Below are positions 6,211 to 47,899 of a stretch of DNA of 64,000 nt, piece by piece. The stretch is from an uncultured Fibrobacter sp. (lineage in GTDB: Bacteria > Fibrobacterota > Fibrobacteria > Fibrobacterales > Fibrobacteraceae), in contig CAKUXP010000002.1 in NCBI GenBank assembly GCA_934700345.1, positions 50,515 through 114,514 of the forward strand, given 5' to 3'. The position numbers and the translations under genes were made by a program. The notes beneath the pieces were generated by a model, which was given only the letters and a program-made list of their open reading frames with translations, was not told the origin of the DNA and did no database searches. Each line of letters starts with the position of its first letter. Position 1 is the first letter of the stretch.

Positions 6211-7386
6211 ATGCCTGAAATTTCCGAATCCTACGAAGTCCATATCGGAGCATTTGAAGGTCCGATGGATCTCCTGCTGTATCTGGTGCAGCAGAGCGAG
6301 GTCAAGATCACGGACATCTCGATCGCCGAAATTGCGGACCAGTATCTCGCCTGGATCAAGAATCTTTCGCAGATGGATCTTTCTCAGGCCGGGGATTTTC
6401 TTGTCATGGCGAGCCGTCTCATGGCGATGAAGACGCGTGAACTTTTGCCAAAGGACGAGCGTACTCCCGAGGATGAGGAACAGATTGATTTTTCGCGGGA
6501 CGAATTCATCCGGCAAATGCTCGAATACCAGCGTTACAAGCAGGTGGCGAAGGAAATGCAGGAAATGGAGAACCGCAATTTCGGGACGTGCTACCGGGGA
6601 CGCCTGGAAAAAACGGAAAGCGAGGAGGATACGCTTGCCGATGCGAATGTCTGGCAGTTGTTTCGGGCATACCAAAAAACACTGAAAACACGCGGAAACG
6701 AAAATGTCCACCATATCGAACTGGACGATGTGACCATCGAGGACCGGCAACAGTTTATTTCGAACACGCTCCGCAGGGATGGACGCGTCCTGTTCGAAGA
6801 TCTTCTCGGGCGCGATCCGCTTCCGATCGTTACCGTGGTAACATTCATGGCGCTAATGGAAATGATCAAGACGGACGAGGTCGTTTTTCGCCAGAGTGAA
6901 CTTTTCGGAGCTATCTGGATCTACCGCAAAAAGGACAACCAGGAATTTGCCGAGGAAATGGCAAACGAAACGCGCCTCTACGAACCGGAGCGCGAGTTTA
7001 AAACCGGCATTGTCGAAAAGCTCCGAGAACGCGAACTTCTGCAGGGAGAAAATTCGGGTAGCGAAAGGGACGTTCCGCTCGACCAGGCGCTTCGTACGGT
7101 ATCCGCCCTGGTTGCGCAGGGAAAGAGCGTCGGTTCGGAAGACATCAACGCGCTGCTTTCCGGGAAGCTTGATTTTAAAACGCTAGAAGCGGAACTTTCA
7201 AGGCCGGACGAAAGACTGGTCGAACCGGAATTGCAAGCAATCGAGGATGCGGCTGAGCTTGTGGAAAATGCGGAAATCGAAGCGAGCCTTGCCGAAAATG
7301 TCGAACCGAACGAAAAATCCGCCGCGGAATCCGCAACGGATGACGAACGTCCGGAAAATCCGGAAGACGATTCCCCGGAACCCTAA
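6211..7386 (+). CDS. scpA: Segregation and condensation protein A (ScpA kleisin) with an ~140-aa acidic C-terminal extension
   Basis: N-terminus MDLLLYLVQQSEVKITDISIAEIADQYLAWI is the conserved ScpA start. At 391 aa it is longer than typical ScpA; the tail is E/D-rich and low-complexity. Confidence 0.7.
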   Translation: MPEISESYEVHIGAFEGPMDLLLYLVQQSEVKITDISIAEIADQYLAWIKNLSQMDLSQAGDFLVMASRLMAMKTRELLPKDERTPEDEEQIDFSRDEFIRQMLEYQRYKQVAKEMQEMENRNFGTCYRGRLEKTESEEDTLADANVWQLFRAYQKTLKTRGNENVHHIELDDVTIEDRQQFISNTLRRDGRVLFEDLLGRDPLPIVTVVTFMALMEMIKTDEVVFRQSELFGAIWIYRKKDNQEFAEEMANETRLYEPEREFKTGIVEKLRERELLQGENSGSERDVPLDQALRTVSALVAQGKSVGSEDINALLSGKLDFKTLEAELSRPDERLVEPELQAIEDAAELVENAEIEASLAENVEPNEKSAAESATDDERPENPEDDSPEP

Positions 7387-17956: not shown

Positions 17957-17988
17957 CGGTCAAGGAATTTAACCAAGAGGATTTGTCG

Positions 17989-19257: not shown

Positions 19258-19291
19258 AAATCAGAATTTTACTCCGAGGTAGGAATTTTCA

Positions 19292-21610: not shown

Positions 21611-21730
21611 AACAAACAGAGCAAAAATTATTACTTTCTATCGGCTTTTGTGGGCGGAAAGGCGCTTTTTCTGTATTTTGGAAAACGTTTTTTGCCCTGC
21701 ATGTATGATGACGTCCGGATTGAAACGAAA

Positions 21731-27700: not shown

Positions 27701-28507
27701 ACCGTACCGAATTTCTCGCAGCGCGTCGGATTTTTGAACTCTTTCCGCAGTGTAAGCACGACGCATCGGGTCGATTATACGCATACGCGGGTTTCTAGGC
27801 CTTTCCAGAGCGCGGAAGACAGTTGGACAACGACATGGAATTTCAATCCGCTGATCCGCATCAGCTTTCTCACCCAGCAGAACATCCGTATCGAGGACAA
27901 TACCTATCTCAAACTGGAATTTACCGATCGGCGTCCCAAGCAGGAAGTCATCTCGCAGACGAACTGGCCGTCGAATGTCGAGGACCTTTCGGATACGACA
28001 AAGTATTTCTACACGCCTTGGATGCCGACCGCGCTTTACAAGGATTTCGGCTACAATGTCGGAAACGACTTGACGATTTCCTACCCGCTCAAGACGAAGC
28101 GCGGATTCCAGTTCTGGAAATGGTACTTCAAACTGAAAAACGATATCGATCTTCGCCTTACCGCCGGCTATGAATACACGAAGACGATTCGGGAATCCTA
28201 CGAGCCGGTTTCCGGCTACAACATGAACGAGAAAAACGAGGCGGCGGGCGATGTCTATCGGCGTTGGAACATCAACGGCAGTGATTACACGGTCTATTTT
28301 CCGAAGCTCGAAAAAACGGAGCGGACAGTTCCTTCGCGGGTTCACGAATGGTTTGTCCGCCCGAGCGCCGGTTACCAGTTCAACAAGATGGCGAGCATGA
28401 GCGCCTATATCGAATACCGTCAAATTCACGAAAAGCTCGACGACGAAACCGCTCACACGGAGCAGATCCTTTCGTTTGAAATCGCGCTTCTCCTGAGATT
28501 CAACTAG
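21731..28507 (+). CDS. Giant (~2260 aa) secreted outer-membrane protein, SprA/Sov-like (candidate type IX secretion translocon)
   Basis: Signal peptide MKRLLAVFALLVSLSPAEP at ATG 21731. The in-frame track ORF starts at 21650 (GTG). Size, abundant alternating aromatic and polar beta-strand-like segments, and S/T-rich loops are consistent with the SprA family (TIGR04189-like). The assignment is by size and composition, not by a named motif. Confidence 0.45.
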   Translation: MKRLLAVFALLVSLSPAEPADSAVSENAVSSGKSSVQYIPLPPSVTPLSDLVPKSGIGQSDRLMNPPKSERFEHNIDFENREMEVSKKYVNPISRDTAEMWSATYPEIASYVSDMYDIGFNRLWLNSFAGQKDGGYAAPEGATLYDIDIPINMPSWMKDFGLDKPKLMLQGTMDIRLSGRGEKDDAPGSTKDNLFPSPTLSYDPSFMVKGKIGPYITVEVNNVESGLGAKNQIRVVYEESYKDEFEDYILQRIEAGTTSLALPGTELTGYSENHKGLFGIKAEWKLGDWWLTTIASQDGGSQEKYTINASTSTTEFQIQDKQFVAYRYYFLNQEARSNYVSAGLAGRSTSPYAATNLKLYRRAPTNTTTNVVENITAVYVTPSGARVEKKIDRLVPMSANDYSYDSKTGIVKVLGANKNTLIAASFSDDGTGRSGTTVNNNSRVVLIQWDATLSELEGIDKLMLRNVYSVGISDESASSFVLRLKNKSGVSSSYLKTLGLVDSTTGTVLTGDATIFKKDASGTYTGEMWLPCRPLSWYSGANSSARARENCLEPFRNVDSSAAMANLYSLPVSNIASKYTSRFYFESVGKRRNSVISVRDPNSSYSVSAGSCMDISEGSEKLKAGSTVLTRGVDYDVNYELGQIELLSETALDPNKEISVEFECEPLFEIDNKVLLGARAELPLSRYGFGNGSLFGITALYKSQSTTASTPTLGSEPYSSFLWGMNLRLQDTTKWMTDVVNWIPGIETKAASNWRFETEFASSYHDANTSSGKTALLEDFESSESGLVYPLSRLSWYQASPPGGVDTDPSTYIESQDYKHKGEFIWHSNNTVLYKHIYPTVGNSDVDNQRLTVLKLTLRPNDNLMGNSWGGIMRPNSSYYQDLSDMKYIEVVARGNVGSIYLDLGLVSEDLSINGDAPNGQYDGENDLGTTTALHDKGLDGLSGSEEHLTVWDCRMNGCVSTIKTSANSDATNTDIARDNFDDSLDDASDPPVAINGTEGNSGERAYDTEDINRNGSLDTDIGFVRYRIDLSDNDDAHFETLKNGWRKWKIPLDQFDTVVSKNGESYQTILAQAQFSRLWMGKLNNGVAEAKVQIVKLGVMGNSWEASNVSSKFVTSSTGGSQTAIVDGSEVDISGSTTTSDTTYLNVSTINNRENSGTYYKSPNTKTERDSETNAALKETALVLTYKNLSPGQSVGATRTFDSDEKDLTKYKTLKMEIHYTTDATRTPVRFAFQFGEGSLEGSTDYYEWSFRPVKINCSAAERAADCHERNWLANAFSEKLSAFSDLKKGRRPPFLEAVVDSIGGEREEVLKLVGNPSTTSVDWIRFVIIADEDASPADLEGEFWIDDLRLSGMDNDWGYAFRTSGQANFADFLSVSASARYQDGNFATLSTSGSSPKPTLSEAESKLDIAADASVNWNKFFADEQGFHMPMSIGYSSTTERPYLKPTDDLELSHDNLGDFAKDVWDGKLTVENADEEQKIRDDAESRGYQSFSRTRRFSFSYSKDYKEESSPVKEVLSQIFLERPAWSYSYTETESRSTTSADSSYSYHTIIEYSLGTFNRFNYKPFSFLKNSSWAKSFSDASFEPWPQTIDLTLFDLSYIRYVNQERDPDFTEPQTAKTVTYTVDLSHKANLRWNIFPFLSTSYSLNISRDMYGGGDQEDFAKENFWTFKNGGLFAADDIFDFDHTDRKVYVSPDSVVIIPYDTVAVVNAKGDTALIDMDDPSTYRILYDSTVYYKVDSVGHREYGRAYGILKNERSRSQQFKTTFSPAVIPFLPMSFSFTSSFRQQKTIPDEYDLYDPTMIEKNYWTISQTNRFEFTPSFRIVNFLKLFGDKNAAAGFFEKLKWRDVKAAWTVDISTVGENFTLSQLYEEQGVTPFQYYLYGLGIGNGYRNRGIWNIVSGDMGLDHRNDYTRFAQYRNGHVDTLVYQGNFTHSVNRTLNLSTGFTLPFWNIGIVTDMQWKQDFSQSREYPLYTDSTIVWPKWGVGVTVPNFSQRVGFLNSFRSVSTTHRVDYTHTRVSRPFQSAEDSWTTTWNFNPLIRISFLTQQNIRIEDNTYLKLEFTDRRPKQEVISQTNWPSNVEDLSDTTKYFYTPWMPTALYKDFGYNVGNDLTISYPLKTKRGFQFWKWYFKLKNDIDLRLTAGYEYTKTIRESYEPVSGYNMNEKNEAAGDVYRRWNINGSDYTVYFPKLEKTERTVPSRVHEWFVRPSAGYQFNKMASMSAYIEYRQIHEKLDDETAHTEQILSFEIALLLRFN

Positions 28508-35240: not shown

Positions 35241-35354
35241 TCGTTTCGACTTGTTATATTTCGATTCTCATAAAGAGGTTTTTAAATCAATGCATTTACG
35301 CGTCTTTTTCCTGTTGCTTCTTGTGTCCCTGGGGAACGTTCTTGCCGTGCAGTT
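35241..35354 (+). repeat. Cassette X copy 1: 5'UTR + RBS + signal peptide (MHLRVFFLLLLVSLGNVLAVQ), 114 bp
   Basis: 112 of 114 positions are identical to 36731-36844. The two copies are fused to completely different downstream coding sequence. Confidence 0.9.
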
Positions 35355-36366
35355 GCCCCAAGCGGTTTTTGCAGTTGGAAAGACTCAATACATAGAAACA
35401 GAGAAAAAACAAAACTACAGAATCTGTCTAGAAAATAATCAAAAAGGATTTTGGGATGGATCCATTCCGTTTGTGATGTCGACGGAAAATTGCCTTTTGG
35501 TGACCACTCCAAATCGAACAGGAAGTTTTTTGTTCGTACACTTTAACGATTCGATTTCCTCAGATAGCATTTGGCTTTTAAACAACCAAAAATTAATCGA
35601 TTTGTCAAAAGACGTTCATTTGTTGTGGAGTTTGGATTCCGTTGTTGGACCGTTCAACAAAAGACGCGTGTATGGTTCGTATAAAGCGACTCGATTGAAC
35701 AAGATTCTTGTCGTCGATCGAACGGAAGCGACGGTTGGCGAAGTAAAATATCTGTGTGATTATTTTGGAGTGGCTTACAAAGCTTCTAATTCGTGGTATC
35801 CAGACAATAACGCGTTAAATCATCCCGATATGCCACAAGATCCGGGGTTTGCCACAGTTCCTAATTACGCTAACAATAGAAGTAAACTGGAAGGTTTTGA
35901 AATTTCTTCGTATGCAAACGGAGCGGATACAACCAAAAACGGGTATCGGCTTCCTACTCGAGATGAATGGGTTGCTTTACAGAGAGGCGCTTCTAAAAAA
36001 GATTATTATTGGGGAAATGACACGGATTCACTAACCATTTCCCAATATGAATGGTATAGGTCCGCCAAGGAACGAGTTCATGATGTCGGGTTGTTGAAAC
36101 CAAATCCGTACGGATTATATGATGTCATGGGAAATGCGATTGAATACACTTTACAGGGACGCGAATGTGTCAGCAAGGATGAAAAATCTCGAGAATGCTT
36201 TATAAAAGACGATTTAAAACAACACGAGGCAAAGAACGTTTGCTATACGCGTATAAAATATAATGCGGATAAAAAAATACAAACAAAGGAGTGTCGTGTC
36301 GGATTTTCCCTAAACGAATTTTGGGGCTTCAGATTGGTCCGCCAGCTTTTTATAGATAATCATTAG
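35290..36366 (+). CDS. Secreted FGE-sulfatase/SUMF1-domain protein (paralog A), AT-rich body
   Basis: Signal peptide from cassette X. NGYRLPTRDEWVALQRG, PNPYGLYDVMGNAIEYT and C-terminal GFRLVRQLF are hallmark FGE-sulfatase domain motifs. The true start is the ATG at 35290; the track ORF from 35008 overlaps the permease. Confidence 0.7.
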   Translation: MHLRVFFLLLLVSLGNVLAVQLPQAVFAVGKTQYIETEKKQNYRICLENNQKGFWDGSIPFVMSTENCLLVTTPNRTGSFLFVHFNDSISSDSIWLLNNQKLIDLSKDVHLLWSLDSVVGPFNKRRVYGSYKATRLNKILVVDRTEATVGEVKYLCDYFGVAYKASNSWYPDNNALNHPDMPQDPGFATVPNYANNRSKLEGFEISSYANGADTTKNGYRLPTRDEWVALQRGASKKDYYWGNDTDSLTISQYEWYRSAKERVHDVGLLKPNPYGLYDVMGNAIEYTLQGRECVSKDEKSRECFIKDDLKQHEAKNVCYTRIKYNADKKIQTKECRVGFSLNEFWGFRLVRQLFIDNH

Positions 36367-36730: not shown

Positions 36731-36844
36731 TCGTTTCGGCTTATTATATTTCGATTCTCATAAAGAGGTTTTTAAATCAATGCATTTACGCGTCTTTTTC
36801 CTGTTGCTTCTTGTGTCCCTGGGGAACGTTCTTGCCGTGCAGTT
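36731..36844 (+). repeat. Cassette X copy 2
   Basis: See copy 1. The two copies are 1490 bp apart. Confidence 0.9.
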
Positions 36845-39797
36845 CCCCCATTCGAAATGGAACCTCGCCACCTATCACGGAGCCTACGCGATATTCGGCG
36901 AGGGCTTTGTCTCCGTGACGGACGGAGGCTCCGACTATTGGCATGTGCAGCTGACTAGGAGCGGCATCGAGCTGCGTGCCGGGAAAACCTACGAAGTACG
37001 GTTCTTCCTGCAGGGCGTAAGCGCGAGGCGTTATGTGGAGGTCCGCATCGGCAGGGACGGTTTTCCGTACGACGCGTTTGCCGAGTTCGGCGAGGTCGTG
37101 GCGACCGCGAACGGAAGGACGGTGACGAGAACTTTCACGATGCAGTCGGGAAGCGTAAGCAACGCCCGGTTCGAGTTCAATCTGGGCAAGGCTACGGGAA
37201 CGGTATATGTCGCCGACATTAGCCTGGACTGCCTCGATTGCGGCGATGATGTCGGAGCCGGCGATTTGCCGGTGTTTCCCGGGGAAAACCTGGACTATGC
37301 GGTCGTAGCCGATACGGTCGATTTCCGGGACGGCTCCATGTCCTTGGGGAGCGTGTTCGGGACAAGGCTTGAACTGGGGGCGGACTCCAAAGTCTTCGGC
37401 GATGTCGATGTCGCGGCGGCGTGCTTCCTTCGGGAACGCACAAAAATTGATGGCGGCTTGCGCTACGGGCGTCCGTGCGCGGAGCAGAACGGCGTGTCCG
37501 CGAAGACGAAAAGCGCCGCCAAACTATCGAAACCCGCATTCGGCGTCCCGAATATCGTTCCCGGGATTTCCCCGGTTTCTGTCGGATTGAAACAGTCCGC
37601 CGAGCTTCCTCCCGGGAGTTACGGGACTTTCTATGCCGCGGCGAAGTCCAGAATCCGTTTTTCTTCGGGAGCTTACGCGTTCCAGTACTTTTACACGGAA
37701 CCCGATGCTGAAATAATTTTTGACTTGTCCGCTGGGCCGGTTACGGTCGGCGTGTCCGGAAGCGTTCGCTTTGGCGACAGGAACCGGTTCTCCGTTATCG
37801 GTGGAAACCCGAGCGAAATTTTGTGGAACGTTTCCGGGGAAAGAGTCGATATGGGGACCGACGGCCTTTATTTCGGAAAATTTGTCGCCCCGGATGCCTG
37901 CGTGCGCATCCCCTCCCGTTCGCATCTCGTCGGTGGCGTCTATGCGAGAAAGTTCGCGATCGAGCCGCAATCGACCGTGTCCAGGGAACCTCGCGCCAGG
38001 GAAATCTCCCACAGCGAAGAGCACTTCGGGCCATTTTTCGAACCGGGAAGGTTTCGCTACCGTTCCCAGGTTTCGCCTTCCCTGTCCAGGATAGAGATGT
38101 TCGTCTATGCGGACAGCCTCCAGGTCACGGTGAATGGAGGCCCTTCAAGGGTCGTTGAGCTTTCGTCTTCGGAAGTTTCTGTCAAAGTGTCGCTCAGGCG
38201 GAACCCGGTGGCGGGGTTCCCTTCCGAAGCGTTCCGCAGCAGCTATCGGTTTGACTTTCTGAAAAATGCGAATTACCGCATCTACTGGAATCCGCAGACG
38301 CCGTGCAGGCAGGGTTGCGACGGGATGACCGCGGCGACGGCCGTCGGCGATTTTGGAAAGGCTCTCGAAACGGCAAGAACGACCGGTCGGGAAATCAACA
38401 TGGCCGGCGGGACCTGGAACGCCTCGGAAAGTTTCCCGGACAGCGTCGTCTCCTGGAAAGTGGGCTTCGAGCTTGTCGGCAACACAGAAAACCTGGGGGA
38501 CCTGTCTTCCGAAAACGACCTGCCCCTGATCGATTTGGGAAATGCCTCCCACATCGAGATAGAGGGGCGCTCTCCGCGCAGCCTGACCGGTTTCCGCATC
38601 GCGAACGGATACAATGCCGGTGACGGCGGCGCAATTTATTCGAACAGCCAGAAGCTCGGGCTTAAAAATCTTCTGGTTTCTTCGTCAAAATCTGGAGGTG
38701 CTGGCGGTGCGGTCTTTGCTTCCGATACGATAAATTTGGAAAATGTCCGTATTTTAAAAAGCTCGTCATTTGGAAACGGAGGAGCTGTTTCTGTCGGCGG
38801 ATTCGCAAAGTTTCTCAACGTTCTGTTTACGGAAAATACTTCTGCAAAAAATGGTGGGGCGCTTGGATTGAATGGTGCAAATGCTTATATTGGAAATGGC
38901 ATATTTTATGGAAATCGATCCGGACTTTCTGGCGGAGCGGTTTACAATGAAAATTCTTTGCTCAATATATGGAATTCAACGTTTTTTGCAAATTTGGCAA
39001 CTACGGCAAACGGAGCTCTTGGGGGAAATGCAAAAGGAATGATTGGAAATAGCATTTTTTGGAAAAATATCACTTCTAAATGCAGCTCAGAAGATTGTTC
39101 TTCGGAGGTCGTTGTTGGTTATTCCGCTACAAATTCCTCCTTTACAAATGCTTATGTTGGCAATAACATTTATGTTGGTGATCCGAAGTTTGCGGATGAA
39201 AAAAATCCAGAAGGCAGAAATGCATATATGGATTATGATGCAGGAATCAACTTGTCCGAGGACTCTCCTCTTTTAAAAGCGGGAATAGCGGATATAAATG
39301 TTCCGACTGACGATTTACTGTCGGAAATTCGAAATATGGCGAATATTGCCTTGGGTGCCTATGCGTATGCAAAACCTAAGCGTGAAACATCTTTTGGTGT
39401 ATTAGATAAGGATGGATCGGTTGTTTCAATAAAGCCTTCAATTCCCTTGATAAATGCAATTTCTGGAGATTATTACAGGGAATATCTAGCGACATCGCCT
39501 TATGCTCGTGTTTGGAAGGCGACGGTTAAAAAGCACAAGAAAACAAAAAAAGATAAGGCTCATGTCAAAATGTGGGTAGTGAACAGACGTGGTGAAAAAA
39601 TTACAAAAGAACCCGTAGAATTTGAAGTTTACCGAAATGGGGAAGAGAACGGTCGCTATGTATTTCAAACGATGACCAAAACTGCCGGTAAACCGGTTTT
39701 ATTTTCGATGCGCCCTGAAGATGCTGGAAATTATAAGGATGCTATTGTTTTATATATGAAGTCTGTTTCTGATTATTTCTATTACGAGGCGGAATAG
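36780..39797 (+). CDS. Large secreted surface protein (1006 aa): N-terminal CBM4/9-like domain, central repetitive region, parallel beta-helix with Pmp/GGA-type repeats. The C-terminal ~380 aa are compositionally distinct (AT-rich).
   Basis: Signal peptide from cassette X (ATG 36780; the track ORF from 36723 includes UTR). The CBM-like region is WHVQLTRSGIELRAGKTYEVRFFLQG. The beta-helix shows repeated GGAIYSN / GGAGGAVFAS / NGGAVSVG / NGGALGLN / SGGAVYNE. G+C drops abruptly near 38640. Confidence 0.6.
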   Translation: MHLRVFFLLLLVSLGNVLAVQFPHSKWNLATYHGAYAIFGEGFVSVTDGGSDYWHVQLTRSGIELRAGKTYEVRFFLQGVSARRYVEVRIGRDGFPYDAFAEFGEVVATANGRTVTRTFTMQSGSVSNARFEFNLGKATGTVYVADISLDCLDCGDDVGAGDLPVFPGENLDYAVVADTVDFRDGSMSLGSVFGTRLELGADSKVFGDVDVAAACFLRERTKIDGGLRYGRPCAEQNGVSAKTKSAAKLSKPAFGVPNIVPGISPVSVGLKQSAELPPGSYGTFYAAAKSRIRFSSGAYAFQYFYTEPDAEIIFDLSAGPVTVGVSGSVRFGDRNRFSVIGGNPSEILWNVSGERVDMGTDGLYFGKFVAPDACVRIPSRSHLVGGVYARKFAIEPQSTVSREPRAREISHSEEHFGPFFEPGRFRYRSQVSPSLSRIEMFVYADSLQVTVNGGPSRVVELSSSEVSVKVSLRRNPVAGFPSEAFRSSYRFDFLKNANYRIYWNPQTPCRQGCDGMTAATAVGDFGKALETARTTGREINMAGGTWNASESFPDSVVSWKVGFELVGNTENLGDLSSENDLPLIDLGNASHIEIEGRSPRSLTGFRIANGYNAGDGGAIYSNSQKLGLKNLLVSSSKSGGAGGAVFASDTINLENVRILKSSSFGNGGAVSVGGFAKFLNVLFTENTSAKNGGALGLNGANAYIGNGIFYGNRSGLSGGAVYNENSLLNIWNSTFFANLATTANGALGGNAKGMIGNSIFWKNITSKCSSEDCSSEVVVGYSATNSSFTNAYVGNNIYVGDPKFADEKNPEGRNAYMDYDAGINLSEDSPLLKAGIADINVPTDDLLSEIRNMANIALGAYAYAKPKRETSFGVLDKDGSVVSIKPSIPLINAISGDYYREYLATSPYARVWKATVKKHKKTKKDKAHVKMWVVNRRGEKITKEPVEFEVYRNGEENGRYVFQTMTKTAGKPVLFSMRPEDAGNYKDAIVLYMKSVSDYFYYEAE

Positions 39798-39799: not shown

Positions 39800-41476
39800 A
39801 TGTTTGGAGATTTGGTGAAATGGTGTCTGCTTCTTTCTTTTTTTATGACTTTGATTGCTTGTGATGACGACAAGGTCACTGGGAATACGCGTAAAGAAGA
39901 TTGCGATGAAAGCAACAACCCAAATTGCTATAAGACTATACCGGGAGTTTCTCCGATAAGTGGTGATTATGATTATAAGTCATATGATGATGGGGATGTG
40001 GTCACGTTCCAATGGGACCAGACGCTGGCTTGGTTTCTTCAATCCGAAAATCACCAATATGGTTATGATCGAGATCCTTTTTCAAATTTAGAAGATTATG
40101 TGGAACGCGGAAAGGATGTGTATATGTCTGTCCTAAAAGGTGAAATGGCAAAAGTGAAAATTGTTGTAGACCAAAATTCAAAAAAGATTTATCGAGTGCA
40201 TCGAATTAGTGAAAATAAAGAAATTTTAGAAAAAAATATTATCGTTGGAACGGATGTGTGTCAAGAAAAAAGCTGTGTAAAAGAATACGCCTTGCCTGTT
40301 GGACATTATGCTGTATTTTATGATGAATTGGATAAAAAAAGATATTTGCACATAATTGAATACTCAAAAAAGACGAACGATATTTATTTTGTGCAGCTTG
40401 GAGATGAATATGGAAATACATGCAATATCGGAAATGCTAATGGATGTTATACCAAGAAATCTGTTCAGGACAATTATAACCGAGTGATGGCTCAGGTGGT
40501 AACTGAGGGAAATTTTATCGAAGTCGATCCGACAAAGATGGATTTGGAAACGGCAGGACCGAATAACATTCTTATTGTTGATTTGAATAGTACGAAAGAC
40601 TCAAAATTACCGCTTGTCAATCAAATCTATGATAAAATTTTAGCAAGCAAGGAATTTGGCTATGGGAATGAAGAGGAAAAATATAACGAGATTAGAGAAA
40701 AATATGAAAACGGTGAAGTAGATGTTTCTATCTTCAATTATGCTGTCGAAGCTTATAATTCCGCTGTGTTACGGCATCGGCAGAAGCATATTGTTTTAGC
40801 GATTAACGAAATGCGGATACGATGGAAATTTTTTATAGGGGATGATTACTCTTTAGGCAATTTGAGTGCGTTTGAACGCGCTTGTGAAGTGGATGAAGAT
40901 GTTTGTCAATCGGGTTCTTTGGCTATGACATTGGAAAGTAGCTGTGGCGATAAGGACGTCCCTATAAAATTGAGTGTTGCAAAAACAAAAGACAACGATC
41001 AGTTTATTCCTAAGATTTCTGGATTTGGGGCTTTAAAAAATGGTTGCGAATACAGTATCTATGCGGATGTTTATCCTTTTGTCCCCGATGATCCGAATGC
41101 CGCCCAAATAACCATCACTAACTATAAATCGGAAAAAGATAAAACGGTAATTGGTGGCATGGTATGGGGAAGTCATTTGAATGGTTCTGCTTCACTGAAT
41201 ACGATTGTTCATGAAATCGGTCATTCGTTTGGTTTGACGGATTTACATAAGGATCCAAATGACCCTTCCAATGCTCCAGAACGTTATTACTATTTTGCCT
41301 TTAATGAAGGCAATATCATGGCGAGCTATGTGCCGTCCGGAGAACGGCTTCGTTATCGACCGCTTTTTGTTGTAAATACGGGGACTAACGATAGGATTCT
41401 TTTAGGAAATGGGTGGTATGCCACCGAAAACCAGTGGGATTGTGTCCGTTCAACAAGTAAATGTTATAAAAAGTAG
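39800..41476 (+). CDS. AT-rich lipoprotein with an HExxHxxGxxD putative zinc-metallopeptidase motif
   Basis: Lipobox FFMTLIACDDD. HEIGHSFGLTDLH near the C-terminus. Starts 3 nt after the previous stop. Markedly AT-rich; the ORF itself is confident but the function is not. Confidence 0.5.
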   Translation: MFGDLVKWCLLLSFFMTLIACDDDKVTGNTRKEDCDESNNPNCYKTIPGVSPISGDYDYKSYDDGDVVTFQWDQTLAWFLQSENHQYGYDRDPFSNLEDYVERGKDVYMSVLKGEMAKVKIVVDQNSKKIYRVHRISENKEILEKNIIVGTDVCQEKSCVKEYALPVGHYAVFYDELDKKRYLHIIEYSKKTNDIYFVQLGDEYGNTCNIGNANGCYTKKSVQDNYNRVMAQVVTEGNFIEVDPTKMDLETAGPNNILIVDLNSTKDSKLPLVNQIYDKILASKEFGYGNEEEKYNEIREKYENGEVDVSIFNYAVEAYNSAVLRHRQKHIVLAINEMRIRWKFFIGDDYSLGNLSAFERACEVDEDVCQSGSLAMTLESSCGDKDVPIKLSVAKTKDNDQFIPKISGFGALKNGCEYSIYADVYPFVPDDPNAAQITITNYKSEKDKTVIGGMVWGSHLNGSASLNTIVHEIGHSFGLTDLHKDPNDPSNAPERYYYFAFNEGNIMASYVPSGERLRYRPLFVVNTGTNDRILLGNGWYATENQWDCVRSTSKCYKK

Positions 41477-41485
41477 GTAAAAACC

Positions 41486-42856
41486 ATGAAAATCAAAATA
41501 ATCCTTTTTCTCGCCATTGCGGTGCAGGCCTTTGCCGCCAAGGATTCTCTCTACGAAATCAATGGAACGGTTTTTAACAAGGAACACGGGCCGAGAGGTC
41601 CCAAGGCGATAGTCAAGGTTTCCCGTACTGTACCGAGGATAAAGCCGCTCCGCGCAAGCGAGGATTCGTTTCAGGTTTCCTTGAGAAAAGGTGGAGATGA
41701 GCGTTGGCTTGAAATGGAAAAGAATACGGTCTATTCCGTCTGTGTCGATGATGATGGCGGCTTTTGGAAAGTTGAAGATTTCAAGTACGAAAAAGAGGGA
41801 AGTTCATGCATTAGATTGCATTCCGGGAATTACGTGAAAAACGGGAAAATTCAGTATGCGACCAGGATGGGCAACGGTTACACTTTTCAGTTGTTGGTCG
41901 GAATGAAGTACATCGATCTCAGGGGGAAAAAACATCTTTTGGGGTATTTAGAGCTGGGCGAAGGCTTCTATTACAAGGAAGGCCTTTGGTATCCGATCGA
42001 TCCGGGAAGGTACGAAGCTATGGACAAGGTTCTGGCTGTGGATAAGTATATGGTCACCGAATGCGAATTTGTTCAGGCTCTGTGGGACTCCATTCCTGCG
42101 CAAGCCAAAAGGGAGTACCAGAGGAATCATCCCTTTTGGATAGAGAAAAAAAAGACCATGACGAAAAACGGATTTTGCGATGCGCATGATTCCGCGGTGG
42201 TCCGTGTCAATTTGTACTATGCCCTTGTCTATGCGAATCTTCGAAGTGTTCGGGACGGTTTTCAACCGGTCTATTCTTTCGAATGGACGGATAATGGATA
42301 CGGCCTTGCGGAAGACGGCAGCTTTGTCATTTCCGATGTCAATTTTCACGTAGAAAACTCGGCTGTCCGCGTGAGGATAGATACAAGCGCGAACGGCTAT
42401 CGTTTGCCCTATTACGATGAATGGATGGCGTTGGGACGCGCCGGACATGATTATACGTTTTATGTATGGGGCCGTGATGGCGATTCCGCAATTGCCGCTC
42501 GGCACGCTTGGTTTGGCGTCCGGGACCCGGAAGACAAGTATTTAAAAATGAACAGGAACGATTGGAATGAACGAAGCCGCTTGGAACGTTCTTGCGGGAA
42601 ATGGCTACAAAAATCTAAGCCGGTAGGAATGCTGAAACCGAATGACTACGGATTGTATGACATGTTTGGTCTTGTGTGCGAAAACGTTATCATGGAAAAA
42701 CACCAGGTATATTTCCATGGGGTTGCGGCTACCTGCAAGGGCGGCTTTTTGGCGGATACCCTCAAGGCGTTGAACTTTAAAGCGAAGTGCAGGACTGATT
42801 TTTTTGATCCGGAAAGACTTTTCCAAGGATTGCGCCTGGTCAGGCAAATCAAGTGA
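41486..42856 (+). CDS. Secreted FGE-sulfatase/SUMF1-domain protein (paralog B)
   Basis: Signal peptide MKIKIILFLAIAVQAFAA. VTECEFVQALWD, ANGYRLPYYDEWMALGRAG, KPNDYGLYDMFGLVCENV and C-terminal GLRLVRQIK. Confidence 0.7.
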   Translation: MKIKIILFLAIAVQAFAAKDSLYEINGTVFNKEHGPRGPKAIVKVSRTVPRIKPLRASEDSFQVSLRKGGDERWLEMEKNTVYSVCVDDDGGFWKVEDFKYEKEGSSCIRLHSGNYVKNGKIQYATRMGNGYTFQLLVGMKYIDLRGKKHLLGYLELGEGFYYKEGLWYPIDPGRYEAMDKVLAVDKYMVTECEFVQALWDSIPAQAKREYQRNHPFWIEKKKTMTKNGFCDAHDSAVVRVNLYYALVYANLRSVRDGFQPVYSFEWTDNGYGLAEDGSFVISDVNFHVENSAVRVRIDTSANGYRLPYYDEWMALGRAGHDYTFYVWGRDGDSAIAARHAWFGVRDPEDKYLKMNRNDWNERSRLERSCGKWLQKSKPVGMLKPNDYGLYDMFGLVCENVIMEKHQVYFHGVAATCKGGFLADTLKALNFKAKCRTDFFDPERLFQGLRLVRQIK

Positions 42857-42875
42857 TGGTGCAAAATGTTGAAAT

Positions 42876-43046
42876 TACGAAAACCAATGGGATTGTCTGC
42901 ACCGTCTGTCGGAAGAGAGCTGTGCGGATCCTGAAATGTGGAGGATTGACCGATGAGAATTTTTACCTGCTTCGCCGTTCTTTTTCTGGCGTTGAACAAA
43001 ATCTTTGCGTTGGAGTACCATGTCGTATTCGATGCGAAGGGGCGGC
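42876..43046 (+). repeat. Cassette Y copy 2 (intact; drives paralog C)
   Basis: See copy 1 at 36504-36673. Confidence 0.85.
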
Positions 43047-44281
43047 TTATCGGAAAAACAGAGGGCTCGGCAAAGATCGGTTACGAGAATTTCGGGAAAG
43101 GCGCCTATTTTGTACTCCGTAAAGGCACTGCGGATAAAAAATCGCCGGAATATAAACGCTCCGTTCCCGCCTTAGAATCTGGTCGGACAAGGTGGTATGA
43201 GGCGGAAAAAAATGAACATGTCAAGATTTGCCCGTCCAATTCGTCGAGCGGAGGAGTTTGGCTTGCCAAGATTCAAGCCGAGGTGGATGCTTCAAACTGT
43301 CTCGGTGTCTTTACGGGTCAATTTGTCCGGAGTCTTTTCGCCCTGTATGTTCCGGACACTTTGAAAATGGAATCTGCGGATACGAGCTGGATTCTTGTCG
43401 GACAAAAAATCGCGCCCATTTCGAAGGGAACGCATCGTTTCTTCGAGGGGAAAGAAGCTCCGCTTCGAAAGATGCAAAATCCGGAATCGGGATATCGAGA
43501 TATAAATTTCTCTTATGATTTGATTGTCGATGCTATGGAGTTCCGTGTGGGCGATGCGGAATGGTTGATTGGTTCGGCTGAAACAGACTCTTTGATAGGA
43601 AAGGACTTGGATTTCATTGATGAACGGAAACTTTTTAACCGAAGTTCCTTGCCCATGGAAACATCGGAAATATATCGCCTGGCAAACGCCCGCAGCGCAC
43701 GTGACGGCCTAGATTCCGTGTACAGGCTTTTACCAAAGGATGTGTGGGAAAAAAGCGGGCTTCCCTTTTTGGACATTTCCGAACGGAGAAATTTAGTCCT
43801 TGTACTTGACACTTCTGCGAATGGCTACCGAGCGCCTTTTTTTGAAGAATGGGCCGCTCTGCAACGCGCAGGAGGTTCGGGAGATTTCTTCTGGGGTAAC
43901 GATAATTCTCTGTCTGGAGAAGCGATCAAATACGAACAACTGTTTGGGGATACGGCCTCTGCCTTTTGCCGTCCGTCGGGCCAAAAGACGCCGAATCCGT
44001 ATGGCCTGTACGATGTCTATGGAAATGCTTTGGAATATGTCTTGAAACGGTCCGTATCGTCGGGGCGTTATTACCACATGATCGAATGCCAAACGGATTT
44101 TAAATATGACCGCAGCCCGGTGTGTTCTCTGTTCTTTGACATGGTCGGCTACAGGGCGAGCAAGAGGCGAAAAATCTGCATCGGAGAGTTTGATGCAGAG
44201 GGAAATGTCTCCGAGACATGCACGCCCTATATGAAGCGGACCTTTGTCAAAGGCTTCCGCCTTGTGCGAAAGCTGCGGTGA
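42953..44281 (+). CDS. Secreted FGE-sulfatase/SUMF1-domain protein (paralog C)
   Basis: Signal peptide MRIFTCFAVLFLALNKIFA. ANGYRAPFFEEWAALQRAG, PNPYGLYDVYGNALEYV and C-terminal GFRLVRKLR. Confidence 0.7.
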   Translation: MRIFTCFAVLFLALNKIFALEYHVVFDAKGRLIGKTEGSAKIGYENFGKGAYFVLRKGTADKKSPEYKRSVPALESGRTRWYEAEKNEHVKICPSNSSSGGVWLAKIQAEVDASNCLGVFTGQFVRSLFALYVPDTLKMESADTSWILVGQKIAPISKGTHRFFEGKEAPLRKMQNPESGYRDINFSYDLIVDAMEFRVGDAEWLIGSAETDSLIGKDLDFIDERKLFNRSSLPMETSEIYRLANARSARDGLDSVYRLLPKDVWEKSGLPFLDISERRNLVLVLDTSANGYRAPFFEEWAALQRAGGSGDFFWGNDNSLSGEAIKYEQLFGDTASAFCRPSGQKTPNPYGLYDVYGNALEYVLKRSVSSGRYYHMIECQTDFKYDRSPVCSLFFDMVGYRASKRRKICIGEFDAEGNVSETCTPYMKRTFVKGFRLVRKLR

Positions 44282-44300
44282 GGTCGCAGTAATTATTCCC

Positions 44301-44729
44301 TCAGATATAATACATATATCCCGAGGATTTTTTGGAAATGAGTTTGTCTAAGGTGATGCTTTTTAGGACCGCGGAAAGCGCTTCGTCGATTTTGTCGTAA
44401 AGCCCGATGCGCAGGGCCTTTCGAAACGGAGTTTCTTCTGCTGTCGGGAGCGGCGGATCGATGATTTTCAGGTCGCCTTCCAGGGCTTCCAGAATGCTGT
44501 CGAGGTGAATGTCGGCGGGAGGCTTGGCGAGAACGAATCCGCCGCTCGAACCCTTGATGGATCGGATGAATCCCGCACGCTTCAGGACGATGGCGATTTG
44601 CCCGAGATAGGTTGAAGATATCTGCTGCCTTTCCGAAATTTCGGCAAGGGTCGTGTGCGAGTTTGGCCCCTGCTCCGCGATATCGATTAAAAAGCGGATG
44701 CCGTAGCGTCCCTTGGTGGAAATCTTCAT
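44301..44729 (-). CDS. Rrf2-family transcriptional regulator (no Cys cluster)
   Basis: MKISTKGRYGIRFLIDIAEQG... is a typical Rrf2 winged-helix N-terminus. Start ATG 44727-44729 overlaps the stop of the upstream Rrf2 gene (ATGA). Confidence 0.8.
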   Translation of the reverse strand: MKISTKGRYGIRFLIDIAEQGPNSHTTLAEISERQQISSTYLGQIAIVLKRAGFIRSIKGSSGGFVLAKPPADIHLDSILEALEGDLKIIDPPLPTAEETPFRKALRIGLYDKIDEALSAVLKSITLDKLISKKSSGYMYYI

Positions 44730-45154
44730 CCGATGAAAACTCCTTGCACTCCGCGGTAAATGGTCGCAAGGTCTTCGAGCGATACCGTCTTGAGGGTGGC
44801 TTCGAGCGCGCCGCTCACCTTGTCCCAGACCTCCTTGGATTCGCAAGCTTCCTTGCGTGGACATTCGCCGCCGTTTTGGCAGGGAACGGACCGGAGCGAC
44901 GTCTCCATCTTGCTTAGAATGTCATACGCGGAAATCTCCCCGGGTTTCTTGGCGAGCCTGTACCCGCCTTGTACGCCGCGGGTTCCGGTGATGAATCCCG
45001 CCTTTTTGAGCGGAATGAAAAGCTGTTCCAGGTAGCCTTCCGAAAGCTTTGTCTCTTCGGCAATCGAATGGATGCTGCGAGGCTTCTCGGAAGTCCCCGT
45101 GGCGAGATTTAAAAGTGCTTCAATGGCGTATTGTCCGCGGGTGGAAATCTTCAT
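44726..45154 (-). CDS. Rrf2-family transcriptional regulator with three Cys (CQNGGECPRKEAC), an IscR/NsrR-like Fe-S type
   Basis: MKISTRGQYAIEALLNLATG... with the cysteine triad in the position used for cluster ligation in IscR/NsrR. Start at 45154 overlaps the OMP gene stop (ATGA). Confidence 0.8.
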   Translation of the reverse strand: MKISTRGQYAIEALLNLATGTSEKPRSIHSIAEETKLSEGYLEQLFIPLKKAGFITGTRGVQGGYRLAKKPGEISAYDILSKMETSLRSVPCQNGGECPRKEACESKEVWDKVSGALEATLKTVSLEDLATIYRGVQGVFIG

Positions 45155-45699
45155 CTGCTGACGTCGATGGCTTTTAATCCCGGGCGGGAATTGGCAAACA
45201 GGATTCCCAGCGAGATGCCGAACCCGTGTTCGGTCTCCTTGGCGAACGTCCACTGGTAGGAACCCTTGATGCGGAAGGAGATGAACGATTCGCGGAAAAA
45301 GTAAAGTCCCGCGTTGGCTTCTACGGTCGGTCCGAACCGGTCGCCGAACGTATCGAGAATGTCGTCTTCGGGAAGCGCGCTTACGCCGGCCATGCCGCCG
45401 ACAAAGGGTGTGATGCTTGCCGGGAGAAGCATTTGCTGCAGACCGAGCTTTACGTTAAATCCGTTTCCCGGGAACGAGTAGCCGATGTCGCTCGTTAGGC
45501 TCGTGTAGGGGAGAAGCTGGATGTTCGAAACAAAGTTCACTACGCCGAATGCCGAGCGTTCGTCGCTCCAGGAATCGTTTACGGGTTTGAATGCTCCGAG
45601 TTCAAGGCCAAAACTCGAAAACGGGTTATAGACGGGACGTCCTTCGCCTGCGAAAGCCGCGATAGCCAGAGAACCGATAAAAAGAATCCATTTTTTCAT
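45151..45699 (-). CDS. Small secreted outer-membrane beta-barrel-like protein
   Basis: Signal peptide MKKWILFIGSLAIAAFAGEG at ATG 45699. Alternating hydrophobic beta-strand pattern with G/Y/F-rich segments, 182 aa. First gene of a three-gene translationally coupled unit. Confidence 0.45.
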   Translation of the reverse strand: MKKWILFIGSLAIAAFAGEGRPVYNPFSSFGLELGAFKPVNDSWSDERSAFGVVNFVSNIQLLPYTSLTSDIGYSFPGNGFNVKLGLQQMLLPASITPFVGGMAGVSALPEDDILDTFGDRFGPTVEANAGLYFFRESFISFRIKGSYQWTFAKETEHGFGISLGILFANSRPGLKAIDVSR

Positions 45700-45717
45700 A
45701 TTGAATCTCCAATCACA

Positions 45718-45783
45718 GAACATTCTGCAAGGTAGCAAAATAACAAATGCGAAAAGCGTTCTACTAGGAATTGCGGAACATTC
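45718..45783. promoter_or_regulatory. Two copies of GAACATTC (45718-45725 and 45776-45783) in the promoter region of the OMP-Rrf2-Rrf2 operon
   Basis: cacaGAACATTCtgc and gcgGAACATTCgga, 58 bp apart. Each has a dyad-like gaa..ttc core. These are candidate Rrf2 operator half-sites. Confidence 0.2.
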
Positions 45784-45862
45784 GGATAATGCGCCTAAAA
45801 TCCTATCTGGGCGGAATGTTTTCTATATTAAGTGGAAACCAAAACTTAACAGAAGGATATCT

Positions 45863-46474
45863 ATGTCTAAAATTCTGCGCATCTTTGCTCTTTCTGCCTT
45901 GGCGATGGCTTTTGTGGCCTGCTCTAGCGGCGGTAAAAAGGTTACCCGCATCGAATCGGATTCCGTGGTCGATCTTTCCGGAAAGTGGAACGATACGGAT
46001 TCCCGTCTTGTCGCGGAAGAGATGATCCAGGACTGCATCGCGCGTCCTTGGTATGGCAAGCTCCTCCAGAACAAGAACGGCGAACTTCCGACGGTCGTCA
46101 TCGGCAGTGTCCGCAACAAGAGCCACGAACACATCAACGTGGAAACCTTTATCAAGGATATGGAGCGCGCCCTTATCAACTCGGGCAAGGTCGATTTCGT
46201 CGCGAACGCCGAAGAACGCGGCGAACTTCGCGCGGAACTCGCAAGCCAGTCCGGCAATGCGACCGAGGAAACCCGCAAGGAAGCCGGCCAGGAAATCGGC
46301 GCGGACCTGATGCTCACGGGAAGCCTGAATTCAATCGTTGACCAGGAAGGCGGCGAACAGGTCGTCTTCTACCAGATTGACTTGCAGCTCGTCGATATCC
46401 AGACCCACAAGACTGTCTGGATCGGTGACAAGAAAATCAAGAAGTATATGAGCAAAAGCTCGGTCAAGATGTAA
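45863..46474 (+). CDS. LpoB-like lipoprotein (penicillin-binding-protein-activator LpoB / COG3417-like fold)
   Basis: Lipobox AFVACSSGG at ATG 45863. VVIGSVRNKSHEHINVETFIKDMERALINSGKVDFV...GADLMLTGSL follows the LpoB C-terminal domain pattern. Confidence 0.45.
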   Translation: MSKILRIFALSALAMAFVACSSGGKKVTRIESDSVVDLSGKWNDTDSRLVAEEMIQDCIARPWYGKLLQNKNGELPTVVIGSVRNKSHEHINVETFIKDMERALINSGKVDFVANAEERGELRAELASQSGNATEETRKEAGQEIGADLMLTGSLNSIVDQEGGEQVVFYQIDLQLVDIQTHKTVWIGDKKIKKYMSKSSVKM

Positions 46475-46486
46475 TCGGTATTCGCC

Positions 46487-47899
46487 ATGAAGAAAATCCG
46501 CTTTTCTCTACTTGCAATCTGTCTGTTCCTTTTTGCCTCCTGTGCCAACAAGTCGATGACTCGGTACGAGGAACTTTCAAAACCGATGGCGAAAGGCGGA
46601 TTTTCCGCTGCGATTGATGCCGTTCAGAAAAACCAGAAAAAACTTTACGGTTCCAATTCGGAATTTCTTTATCACTTTGACCTGGCGACCCTCTATCATT
46701 ACGATGGCAATTACCGGAAAAGCGCTGACGAGTTCGAAAAGGCGAAGCAGGTCTATGACGACCTCTATACAAAGTCCGTAACCAACGAAGCCGCTTCTGT
46801 CTTGACAAACGACAATGTCCGTCCGTATCGGGCGAGACCTTTTGAAATCCTTTCCCTTTACGAAATGAACATCGTAAACTATCTCGCGATGGGAGATGTC
46901 GATGGAGCGCTTGTTGAAGCCCGGGCTTCGGATATCGCTTTGCAACAGCTGTACCAGAAGAGTGACAAGAAGACGAATGATGCCGGATATTTGCGCTACC
47001 TGATCGCTCTGGTATATGAAATGGGCGGAGAAACGGACAATGCCGCAATATCCTATTACAAGACGGTTCGTGCCTATTCCGAGGAACCGACGAAGCTTCC
47101 CGCCGAGGCGCAGGCGTTTATCGTAAACCGCCTCGAAAAGAGCGGTCGAGCAAATGATATTTCGACTTTGAACTTTCCGAATTCGAATGTTTCGGAGACG
47201 GTCCCGATGTATGTCGATAACGCGAACGGTGAAATCGTCGTCATTGGCTATGCGGGCCACAGTGCGATTCTCGGGGAATGGATGCTTTCGGGAACCTATG
47301 TGCGCGGCGGGATTCTGAACGTGATGGGAAAGAATCCGCAATCGGGAAAAGTGGAAAGTCTGACGATTCCGTTCCCGGCGACCGCTGTCGGAAGCCACGG
47401 TGGAACGACATTTTCTGTCACGATTGCAATTCCGGAACGCAAGGATGTTCCGTATCATGTAGAGAACTTTGAAATTTTGCTGGACGGAAAACCTTTGGGC
47501 TACCAGCCGGAAGTTTTTTTGGACAATACGAAAAACCTGGTCAAGAATCTGGAAGACGAGCGCGCGGTGACGCTCGGACGGACCGCGGTTCGCGTTCTTA
47601 CCCGGACTATCGCTGCGCAGACCGCCAAAAAGCAGATGGAGACGAACAATGTCCTGCTGAATCTTGTGACGAGCATCGGCACGGACGTCGCAGCAGCCCA
47701 ATTGGAACAGGCCGATCTGCGGGTTGCGCTTTTCCTTCCGCATGATGTCCGCATGGCGCGGATTCCGGCGACTCCGGGTACGCACAAGGTAACGGTTCTT
47801 GCGACAAACCGGAACGGCGGTGCGGTCAAGCGTTACGAGTTTACGGCGAATGTCAAGCCCGGCAAAAAGGCGCTGGTCGTTGTTCCCGCAATCCGATAA
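46487..47899 (+). CDS. Hypothetical lipoprotein (470 aa), helical TPR-like N-terminal half, beta-rich C-terminal half
   Basis: Lipobox LFASCANK. Begins 13 nt after the LpoB-like gene. No family assigned. Confidence 0.5.
   Translation: MKKIRFSLLAICLFLFASCANKSMTRYEELSKPMAKGGFSAAIDAVQKNQKKLYGSNSEFLYHFDLATLYHYDGNYRKSADEFEKAKQVYDDLYTKSVTNEAASVLTNDNVRPYRARPFEILSLYEMNIVNYLAMGDVDGALVEARASDIALQQLYQKSDKKTNDAGYLRYLIALVYEMGGETDNAAISYYKTVRAYSEEPTKLPAEAQAFIVNRLEKSGRANDISTLNFPNSNVSETVPMYVDNANGEIVVIGYAGHSAILGEWMLSGTYVRGGILNVMGKNPQSGKVESLTIPFPATAVGSHGGTTFSVTIAIPERKDVPYHVENFEILLDGKPLGYQPEVFLDNTKNLVKNLEDERAVTLGRTAVRVLTRTIAAQTAKKQMETNNVLLNLVTSIGTDVAAAQLEQADLRVALFLPHDVRMARIPATPGTHKVTVLATNRNGGAVKRYEFTANVKPGKKALVVVPAIR

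Follow-up and report, generated by a model that had tools for sequence, protein, structure and literature searches.

A co-inherited two-gene Rrf2 cassette, with a putative Fe-S-type sensor and a CymR-like partner, fused to an envelope gene in Fibrobacteraceae

The Rrf2 regulators IscR, NsrR, RirA, CymR and RsrR are regarded as homodimeric sensors encoded by single genes. Escherichia coli IscR's iron-sulfur (Fe-S) cluster is held by what we take to be Cys92, Cys98, Cys104 and His107, and in NsrR and RsrR the cluster is completed by a residue from the first helix of the partner subunit, presumably Asp8 in NsrR and Glu8/His12 in RsrR. CymR, the master repressor of cysteine metabolism in Bacillus subtilis and Staphylococcus aureus, forms with the O-acetylserine sulfhydrylase CysK a cysteine sensor that works via O-acetylserine (PMC2940859, PMC3828012). 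In S. aureus CymR, the pentapeptide YMFYI inserts into the CysK active site, where the carboxylate of the terminal Ile sits in the O-acetylserine site, and the C-terminal decapeptide that includes it binds CysK, in a crystal-supported study, with a dissociation constant of 25 nM (bioRxiv 10.1101/2024.09.19.614015). In Clostridium acetobutylicum, the CymR-like CAC2236 adjoins cysK and the IscR-like CAC1675 adjoins the isc genes, and their binding motifs are similar (PMC3828012). Here we describe two unlike Rrf2 genes, rrfA and rrfB, that follow the gene for an outer-membrane protein (OMP) in a 64-kb stretch of DNA (contig CAKUXP010000002.1; the whole 64,000 nucleotides are referred to as the window) from a Fibrobacteraceae bacterium of the human gut, copies of which, identical or 97% identical, are found in Hadza gut assemblies and in a metagenome-assembled genome of Hallerella.

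The three-gene unit formed by these genes is the product of a lineage-specific fusion between an envelope gene and a two-Rrf2 cassette: the OMP is evolutionarily part of a module with a divergently transcribed, LpoB-like lipoprotein gene and not of the Rrf2 pair, and RrfA-RrfB is an old, co-inherited cassette that is independent of the OMP. With slightly better than even confidence, we read the locus as an OMP module on which an Rrf2 cassette rides, the latter combining an Fe-S-type sensor and a CymR-like partner for sulfur and Fe-S metabolism. The parts of the unit are:

45699-45151, minus strand: open reading frame of the OMP-like protein (ATG 45699 to TGA 45151; 182 residues), the first gene of the transcription unit
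45154-44726, minus strand: open reading frame of RrfA (ATG 45154 to TGA 44726; 142 residues), an Rrf2 protein with a Cys triad
44729-44301, minus strand: open reading frame of RrfB (ATG 44729 to TGA 44301; 142 residues), a Cys-free Rrf2 protein
45154-45151, minus strand: ATGA overlap of the OMP stop and the RrfA start
44729-44726, minus strand: ATGA overlap of the RrfA stop and the RrfB start

A first-pass annotation, made from the sequence of the window, had described three genes chained by two ATGA overlaps, and comparison with related loci (numbered with L throughout) bears this out: ATGA at both junctions and the RrfA Cys triad are kept in 15 of the 15 species-level Fibrobacteraceae loci that carry the pair, and the 4-nucleotide RrfA/RrfB overlap recurs, as ATGA or GTGA, in the Treponema-type pairs and in those of L034, L055, L057 and L109. 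The overlapping starts, for which mis-assignment had been considered, stand, because position 1 of the Rrf2 model falls on MKIST in both RrfA and RrfB and because the longer upstream extensions of the reading frames (GTG 45253, ATG 44864) differ in extent between loci. Since a convergent gene ends at 44281, 20 bp 3' of RrfB, the unit ends with RrfB. GGAG precedes the OMP ATG, and AAGGAG lies 10 nucleotides 5' of the rrfB ATG, within RrfA; reading the sequence in front of the rrfA ATG (…GACGTCAGCAGATGA), we found nothing resembling a Shine-Dalgarno sequence, so that RrfA translation probably depends on re-initiation after the OMP. Scans for sigma-70 promoters and terminators gave no noteworthy internal promoter or terminator. 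We also considered, and rejected, that the leader or the junctions contain an RNA element, as Rfam has no match at E <= 1 over 44000-46600 and the 56-nucleotide leader folds no better than its shuffles (z -1.1).

The first gene had been taken for that of a secreted β-barrel protein, and structure prediction agrees. The OMP has a signal peptide (MKKWILFIGSLAIAAFA|GEG), and its AlphaFold2 model is an 8-strand antiparallel barrel with a disordered tail (pLDDT 79, pTM 0.68), for which the top Foldseek matches are NspA, OprF-N, OmpA-TM and OmpX (E 1e-4 to 1e-3; TM-scores 0.5-0.57). No Pfam or NCBIfam family, those of OMP barrels included, matches the protein at E <= 0.01, and its family is rare, with 55 representatives among 1.84 billion proteins in an exhaustive profile search. 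The last strand (…GILF) is followed by a 14-residue C-terminal tail, ANSRPGLKAIDVSR, which does not vary among 14 homologues of down to 52% identity and hardly varies in the rest, distant homologues retaining RPG[LI][RK]x[LI]. We considered the tail as a nucleotide-level signal for coupling to rrfA and rejected this: because its synonymous sites vary, including a TCC-to-AGC switch of a serine codon, and because it is kept in loci without Rrf2 genes, the constraint is on the peptide and not on the rrfA overlap. The tail (RPG[LI][KR]x[LI]D…) looks like a periplasmic docking peptide, whose partner may be one of the two products encoded on the other strand:

45863-46474, plus strand: LpoB-like lipoprotein gene (PF13036 LpoB, E 7e-46)
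46487-47899, plus strand: gene of a 470-residue lipoprotein-like protein, together with the LpoB-like gene the constant partner of the OMP gene

The LpoB-like and ∼470-residue genes point away from the OMP gene in all 20 species-level genome loci that were recovered with the OMP profile, and also in two distant homologues (P0020 and P0027); no Pfam family is assigned to the 470-residue protein. The Rrf2 pair follows the OMP gene in 15 of these 20 loci and is absent from the position in Fibrobacter intestinalis ATCC 43854 (L018), L022, L023, L024 and L026, where L018, L022 and L026 have a GC-rich hairpin and a T run 3' of the OMP stop codon. OMP-A-B arrangements (A and B standing for genes of the RrfA and RrfB types) with other downstream neighbours occur in further Fibrobacter lineages (L027-29, L124-126), and neither rrfA nor rrfB was found alone in Fibrobacteraceae loci. 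The envelope module, encompassing a protein of ∼470-485 residues, an LpoB-like protein and a tailed OMP, is seen in the window as well as in L018, L022, L026, L120 and L122. In one Hadza-gut strain (L006, 2421-3789), a gene of the chloramphenicol acetyltransferase family (PF00302) and a methyltransferase gene lie between the DNA-alkylation-repair and 470-residue genes; neither is present in the window or in the other strains.

The Rrf2 pair, in turn, is found in a second, separate context. The closest relatives of RrfB outside Fibrobacter are 144-residue proteins of Treponema and Spirochaetaceae, at 47-51% identity, and further relatives come from a metagenome sample of 80 loci (L040-L119) picked solely by RrfA similarity, in which the matches listed are relatives of 35-46% identity with no further Fibrobacter locus among them. 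The arrangements observed, with Cys3 denoting the triad, are:

L032, L033 and L036 (Treponema/Spirochaetaceae contigs): A (Cys3), 4-nucleotide overlap, B (YM[YF][YF]I tail), then PALP (CysK-like) and Cys_Met_Meta_PP genes
L030: two Cys_Met_Meta_PP genes, then A, then B
L034 (Fibrobacterales contig): proS, A, B, with 4-nucleotide overlaps throughout
L055, L057 and L109: A/B pair with 4-nucleotide overlap, then a CysK-like gene; a MetY-like gene also in L057 and L109
L056, L066 and L079: A/B pairs with 79-141 nucleotides of spacing, no overlap
L079: the pair between ThiF and Cys_Met_Meta_PP-MnmA

L032, L033, L036, L055, L057 and L109 thus have cysK-like and Cys_Met_Meta_PP genes directly downstream of the cassette, and the CysK-like (PALP) proteins beside the cassettes have 306-309 residues. 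In a neighbour-joining tree, computed with no bootstrap, pairs with the 4-nucleotide overlap separate into one clade holding all A proteins and another holding all B proteins, and the order of branching agrees between the two; the pair is therefore older than its arrival in Fibrobacteraceae and was inherited as a unit. This co-inheritance and the mirrored trees point to a likely joint function. The reading of the OMP and the regulators as one functional unit, which the first-pass annotation implied, is not supported by these comparisons: the OMP keeps its LpoB-like and 470-residue partners without Rrf2 genes in 5 of 20 species and in the two distant homologues, and the Rrf2 pair stands elsewhere behind proS, Cys/Met genes or ThiF, or heads cysK-metY operons. 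Because the pair adjoins cysteine-synthesis genes in spirochaetes, we regard it, and not the three-gene operon, as the unit of interest. Coupled Rrf2 pairs are not described in the literature that we searched. Another kind of tandem pair, two Cys3 Rrf2 genes 11 nucleotides apart, was seen in human gut metagenome contigs (L094 and L105, 3567-4450), and a more distant single Rrf2 gene (L038) adjoins a class-V aminotransferase gene.

Both regulators are full-length members of the Rrf2 family, the second protein included, whose membership had been the more open to doubt. PF02082 (cut-off 30) matches RrfA with 120 bits (E 1e-34) and RrfB with 104.5 bits (E 6e-30), TIGR00738 (cut-off 73) gives 123 and 102.6 bits, and model positions 1-130/132 are covered in both cases. 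The two are paralogues with 36% identity, and the distinction that had been drawn between them, that only one has a Cys triad of the IscR/NsrR type, is correct: RrfA carries C92-x5-C98-x5-C104, present in every orthologue, Treponema-type included, and RrfB has no cysteine at all. Purifying selection acts on all three genes, with ratios of non-synonymous to synonymous substitution (omega, dN/dS) of 0.05-0.16 for the OMP, 0.14-0.23 for RrfA and 0.09-0.15 for RrfB, so that RrfB is more constrained than RrfA; it is full length at every locus. The best match of both proteins in the PDB is 4CIC (Thermincola potens IscR), and their recognition-helix regions are unlike, each being invariant within its clade (GYLEQLFIPLKKAG vs YLGQIAVVLKRAG).

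Assignment to a named subfamily is less firm. Neither protein reaches the equivalog cut-offs of IscR, CymR, NsrR, RirA or the SUF regulator: the IscR equivalogs TIGR02010 and NF008110 give RrfA 97.4 bits against a cut-off of 207.55 and 75.3 against 275 (RrfB, 83.1 and 62.1), the CymR equivalog NF047409 (cut-off 195) gives 104.3 for RrfA and 108.2 for RrfB, and NsrR NF008240 (cut-off 182) gives 41.4 and 39. The best NCBIfam model for RrfB is nonetheless CymR, to which it aligns end to end (1-142 vs 1-139/139). At position 107, RrfA has Lys (K107), and A proteins have Lys or Arg there, not His; RrfB carries none of these four IscR ligands. Glu12 is conserved among A-clade proteins and could complete a cluster across the dimer. 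From these residues, we consider RrfA a putative Fe-S-type sensor.

RrfB ends in GYMYYI, which aligns with the C-termini of S. aureus CymR (3T8R, GYMFYI) and of 4CIC (GYMYYI). Of 15 Fibrobacteraceae orthologues, 11 retain this tail, which reads YM[YF][YF]I in all Treponema-type B proteins. Taken together, the CymR model, the tail, the CymR-CysK precedent and the cysK/metY neighbourhood of orthologous cassettes support a role of RrfB as a CymR-like regulator with a tail of the CysK-docking type; a cysK gene was not found in the window. In the L027-L029 loci (5533-6948), the gene convergent on rrfB encodes a cysteinyl-tRNA synthetase, in the same clade in which RrfB is without its YI tail; this may be a coincidence.

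Among the matches listed from the metagenome sample, most single Cys3 Rrf2 proteins of anaerobes end in [YF]xI (…DYVI, …DYCI, …EYSI, …MYYI). As these single relatives carry both the triad and the tail, the pair looks like a subfunctionalised duplicate of a single anaerobe Rrf2 protein, in which the cysteines stayed with A and the tail with B. Together with the GYMYYI end of 4CIC, these relatives also suggest that docking to CysK may be common among Fe-S-type Rrf2 proteins, with CymR not the sole case.

Sequence elements that might connect the regulators to their own operon were sought in the control region, with footprinting by an alignment of 15 species:

45700-45862, both strands: divergent control region from the OMP to the LpoB-like gene, 163 bp
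45824-45829, plus strand: TATATT, putative -10 of the LpoB-like gene, a conserved block
45729-45737, minus strand: putative extended -10, TGCTACCTT, TGCTAnATT in relatives; assigned by position and consensus only
45715-45728, both strands: imperfect palindrome GCAGAAnnTTCTGC (minus strand GCAGAATGTTCTGT), directly 3' of the putative extended -10
45762-45770, plus strand: TACTAGGAA (minus strand TTCCTAGTA), core of the conserved block CAAyTCCTAG
45718-45725, plus strand: proximal GAACATTC box
45776-45783, plus strand: distal GAACATTC box, kept in the 7-8 closest species only

The block TTATCCGA is conserved, Rrf2-less loci included, and GGAG forms a further conserved block. The sigma-70 scan did not call the putative extended -10, its single promoter call running into the LpoB coding start. 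The first-pass annotation had drawn attention to the two repeated GAACATTC boxes. They are present, 58 bp apart, but their repetition is no more than chance would give, a direct 8-mer repeat in 163 bp of this composition having P about 0.32; the 8-mer occurs 7 times in the window vs 3.5 expected, a count that 10 of 100 shuffles reach. As, in addition, the distal copy is not conserved, we reject the boxes as a repeated operator and retain the proximal one only as part of the palindrome that encloses it. ATCCGA, which flanks the distal box, is broadly conserved, Rrf2-less loci included.

The palindrome itself, as GCAG(A/G)(A/C)...TCTGC, was found in every aligned Rrf2-bearing locus but L021 (14 of 15, the window included) and in none of the 5 Rrf2-less loci, and is a candidate operator overlapping the transcription start. 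As a regulon-wide motif it was rejected: allowing up to 2 mismatches, the window holds 5 copies vs 3.6 expected, and no exact copy exists outside the OMP promoter in ∼1 Mb of DNA (126 loci). The second element, TACTAGGAA, has one exact copy in the window. The block around it, CAAyTCCTAG, is found in most Rrf2-bearing loci, is degenerate in L015, L019 and L025 and absent from L021, and has no counterpart, by eye, in the Rrf2-less L018 and L022. In L032, L055 and L109, cysK-like genes have (C/T)TACTAGGA(A/T) between their -10 and their start, and within 150 nucleotides upstream of 76 distinct Rrf2 genes CTAGGA is ∼10-fold and TAGGAW 3.7-fold enriched, control words being depleted. The CTAGGAAT-core block has no obvious palindrome, and the TACTAGGAA core is a candidate half-site of the CymR/IscR type. 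The 27-bp B. subtilis CymR box was also tried and rejected, since only its GGAATT core matches.

The reading that we favour can be put together as follows. The locus would comprise two independent units, the envelope module (OMP, LpoB-like and 470-residue proteins) and the Rrf2 cassette, which may have come to sit at the OMP gene's 3' end in a single lineage of Fibrobacteraceae and would now be expressed from the OMP promoter. RrfA would be made by ribosomes that re-initiate at the ATGA after the OMP, and RrfB from the second ATGA with the help of its own AAGGAG. RrfA would act as an Fe-S-cluster-type sensor through Cys92, Cys98 and Cys104, and the YMYYI tail of RrfB would dock into the active site of CysK, such that DNA binding reports cysteine and O-acetylserine status. 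Their most likely joint targets would be sulfur-amino-acid and Fe-S-related genes at other places in the genome; control of their own operon, via the CTAGGAAT-core site and/or the GCAGAAnnTTCTGC palindrome, is possible.

Several observations weigh against this reading. As noted above, neither protein attains an NCBIfam equivalog cut-off, and RrfA has K107 in place of the fourth IscR ligand. The YI tail is lost in the clade of L015, L016, L019 and L027 and in L025 with the pair retained, so that docking to CysK is not essential everywhere. Neither cys, met, isc nor suf genes were found near the pair in the window or in any Fibrobacteraceae locus, and linkage to isc/suf is missing from every orthologous locus as well. 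CTAGGA stands upstream of just 8 of the 76 Rrf2 genes, and the palindrome is missing in the pair-bearing L021 and in Treponema-type loci. Finally, the OMP-A-B arrangement is stable across all Rrf2-bearing Fibrobacteraceae, and the pair may have some functional tie to the OMP/LpoB module.

Such a tie, which is also what the first-pass annotation implied, would have the pair autoregulate the OMP operon, and perhaps the divergent LpoB genes, making outer-membrane and peptidoglycan functions responsive to redox, Fe-S or cysteine status. The arrangement persists in all 15 species with Rrf2 genes and also in further lineages with other downstream flanks, most loci with the pair have CAAyTCCTAG and GCAGAAnnTTCTGC, which the inspected Rrf2-less loci do not, and the palindrome borders directly on the putative -10, where a repressor site is typical. 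However, the module exists without the pair in a quarter of the species (5 of 20) and in the two distant homologues, the same cassette is found elsewhere behind proS and behind or in front of Cys/Met genes, L021 has the pair with neither palindrome nor CTAGGA block, and the OMP would not become a physiological target through autoregulation of the host operon alone; we hold this explanation to be unlikely. Our doubts are of the same order for an obligate RrfA-RrfB heterodimer, in which the Fe-S site of one subunit and the CysK-docking tail of the other, derived by duplication and subfunctionalisation from an ancestor with both Cys triad and YxI tail, would bring Fe-S/redox and cysteine status together at one asymmetric operator, with the ATGA coupling serving 1:1 synthesis and co-translational assembly. 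The order is always A then B with a 4-nucleotide overlap, in Fibrobacteraceae, in the Fibrobacterales contig and in Treponema/Spirochaetaceae-labelled contigs; the two trees mirror each other; neither gene occurs alone in Fibrobacteraceae; the recognition-helix regions differ, each being clade-invariant; and the CTAGGAAT-core block is without an obvious palindrome. Yet co-inheritance is equally expected of two homodimers in one pathway, and a second class of A/B pairs is spaced by 79-141 nucleotides and uncoupled. The structurally characterised Rrf2 proteins matched here are all named singly, with no partner, and are presumably homodimers; a literature search for Rrf2 and heterodimer returned no title or abstract on a native Rrf2 heterodimer, and to our knowledge no natural one has been described.

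That RrfB is merely a decaying, non-functional duplicate of RrfA, with overlaps that reflect the packing of a compact genome, would fit the paralogy of the two at 36% identity, the loss of all three cysteines and the fact that 4-nucleotide overlaps are usual in bacterial operons. We give it hardly any credence: purifying selection is stronger on RrfB than on RrfA, RrfB is full length everywhere and belongs to a distinct, widely distributed clade, and it keeps the C-terminal motif shared with CymR.

In the wider surroundings of the unit, at 39800-44281 and convergent on rrfB, lie paralogous secreted or lipoprotein-like genes (558, 456 and 442 residues) with weak similarity to the FGE-sulfatase domain, whose copy number, order and intactness vary between close strains (flanks of L001, L002, L007 and L012); one copy is split in L002 and L010, and L007 has an extra ∼2.5 kb. 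The genes at 35290-36366 (358 residues) and 36780-39797 (1005 residues) share their first 21 residues, MHLRVFFLLLLVSLGNVLAVQ, a pattern that points to recent duplication or recombination at the 5' end. Arranged in tandem at 16820-20596 are three paralogous lipoprotein genes (378, 422 and 434 residues) whose lipobox N-termini are alike (…AC(G/S)D(D/S)VT…); an open reading frame of 2268 residues follows them at 21701-28507. Among the database records, L009-L014 (the H076xx-L1_cleanbin series) have contigs of up to 325 kb, OMP-like proteins 82-95% identical to that of the window and the same local gene order; their titles are Oscillospiraceae, Alistipes onderdonkii, Methanomethylophilaceae archaeon, Sodaliphilus, Senegalimassilia and Eggerthellaceae. 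To all appearance, these bins are contaminated or wrongly labelled.

What is new here is a fixed two-gene Rrf2 cassette in which an Fe-S-type Cys triad and a tail of the CysK-docking type are split between coupled paralogues. If the two act jointly, as a heterodimer or at shared promoters, they would provide a simple natural link from Fe-S status to the supply of cysteine in strict anaerobes of gut and rumen, and in the case of a heterodimer, one DNA-bound complex would integrate Fe-S/redox status with cysteine supply. The OMP side of the locus is an uncharacterised, deeply conserved envelope module that may matter for envelope biology in the Fibrobacteraceae that carry it and in their relatives. 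The practical lesson is that this striking operon of an OMP plus two regulators is a secondary fusion, not a functional triad.

Compared with the 8-stranded barrels of the OmpA N-domain, OmpX, NspA and OprF-N, the OMP shares the signal peptide and the predicted 8-strand antiparallel barrel, and differs in its rarity, in having no Pfam or NCBIfam match, in its nearly invariant 14-residue periplasmic tail and in its constant linkage to an LpoB-like gene. RrfB resembles CymR in its length, in being free of the Cys triad, in its end-to-end alignment with the CymR model and with the structures 2Y75 and 3T8R, in its YMYYI end (YMFYI in CymR) and in that orthologous cassettes of other phyla lie directly upstream of a cysK-like gene. 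Unlike CymR, it scores 108 bits against a cut-off of 195, is always paired and ATGA-overlapped with a Cys3 paralogue, has no cysK gene near the pair in Fibrobacteraceae, has lost the tail in some Fibrobacter clades and is hosted by a Gram-negative anaerobe from a different phylum. The cysteines of RrfA are spaced like Cys92/98/104 in E. coli IscR (C-x5-C-x5-C), but RrfA scores below the cut-offs (97/207, 75/275), has Lys/Arg in place of His107 and is not adjacent to isc/suf genes, its cluster being putative. With NsrR and RsrR it has the three-Cys region in common and, in the conserved Glu12, a residue with which the other subunit could supply the fourth ligand; the similarity is, however, very weak (NsrR model, 41 vs 182 bits; 5N07, E 1.5e-4), and genes for nitric oxide detoxification are not found nearby. 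The closest parallel for the combination is C. acetobutylicum, where one genome likewise has a CymR-like and an IscR-like Rrf2 protein; there, the two are encoded at separate loci with their own target operons, whereas RrfA-RrfB is one coupled cassette, inherited as a unit.

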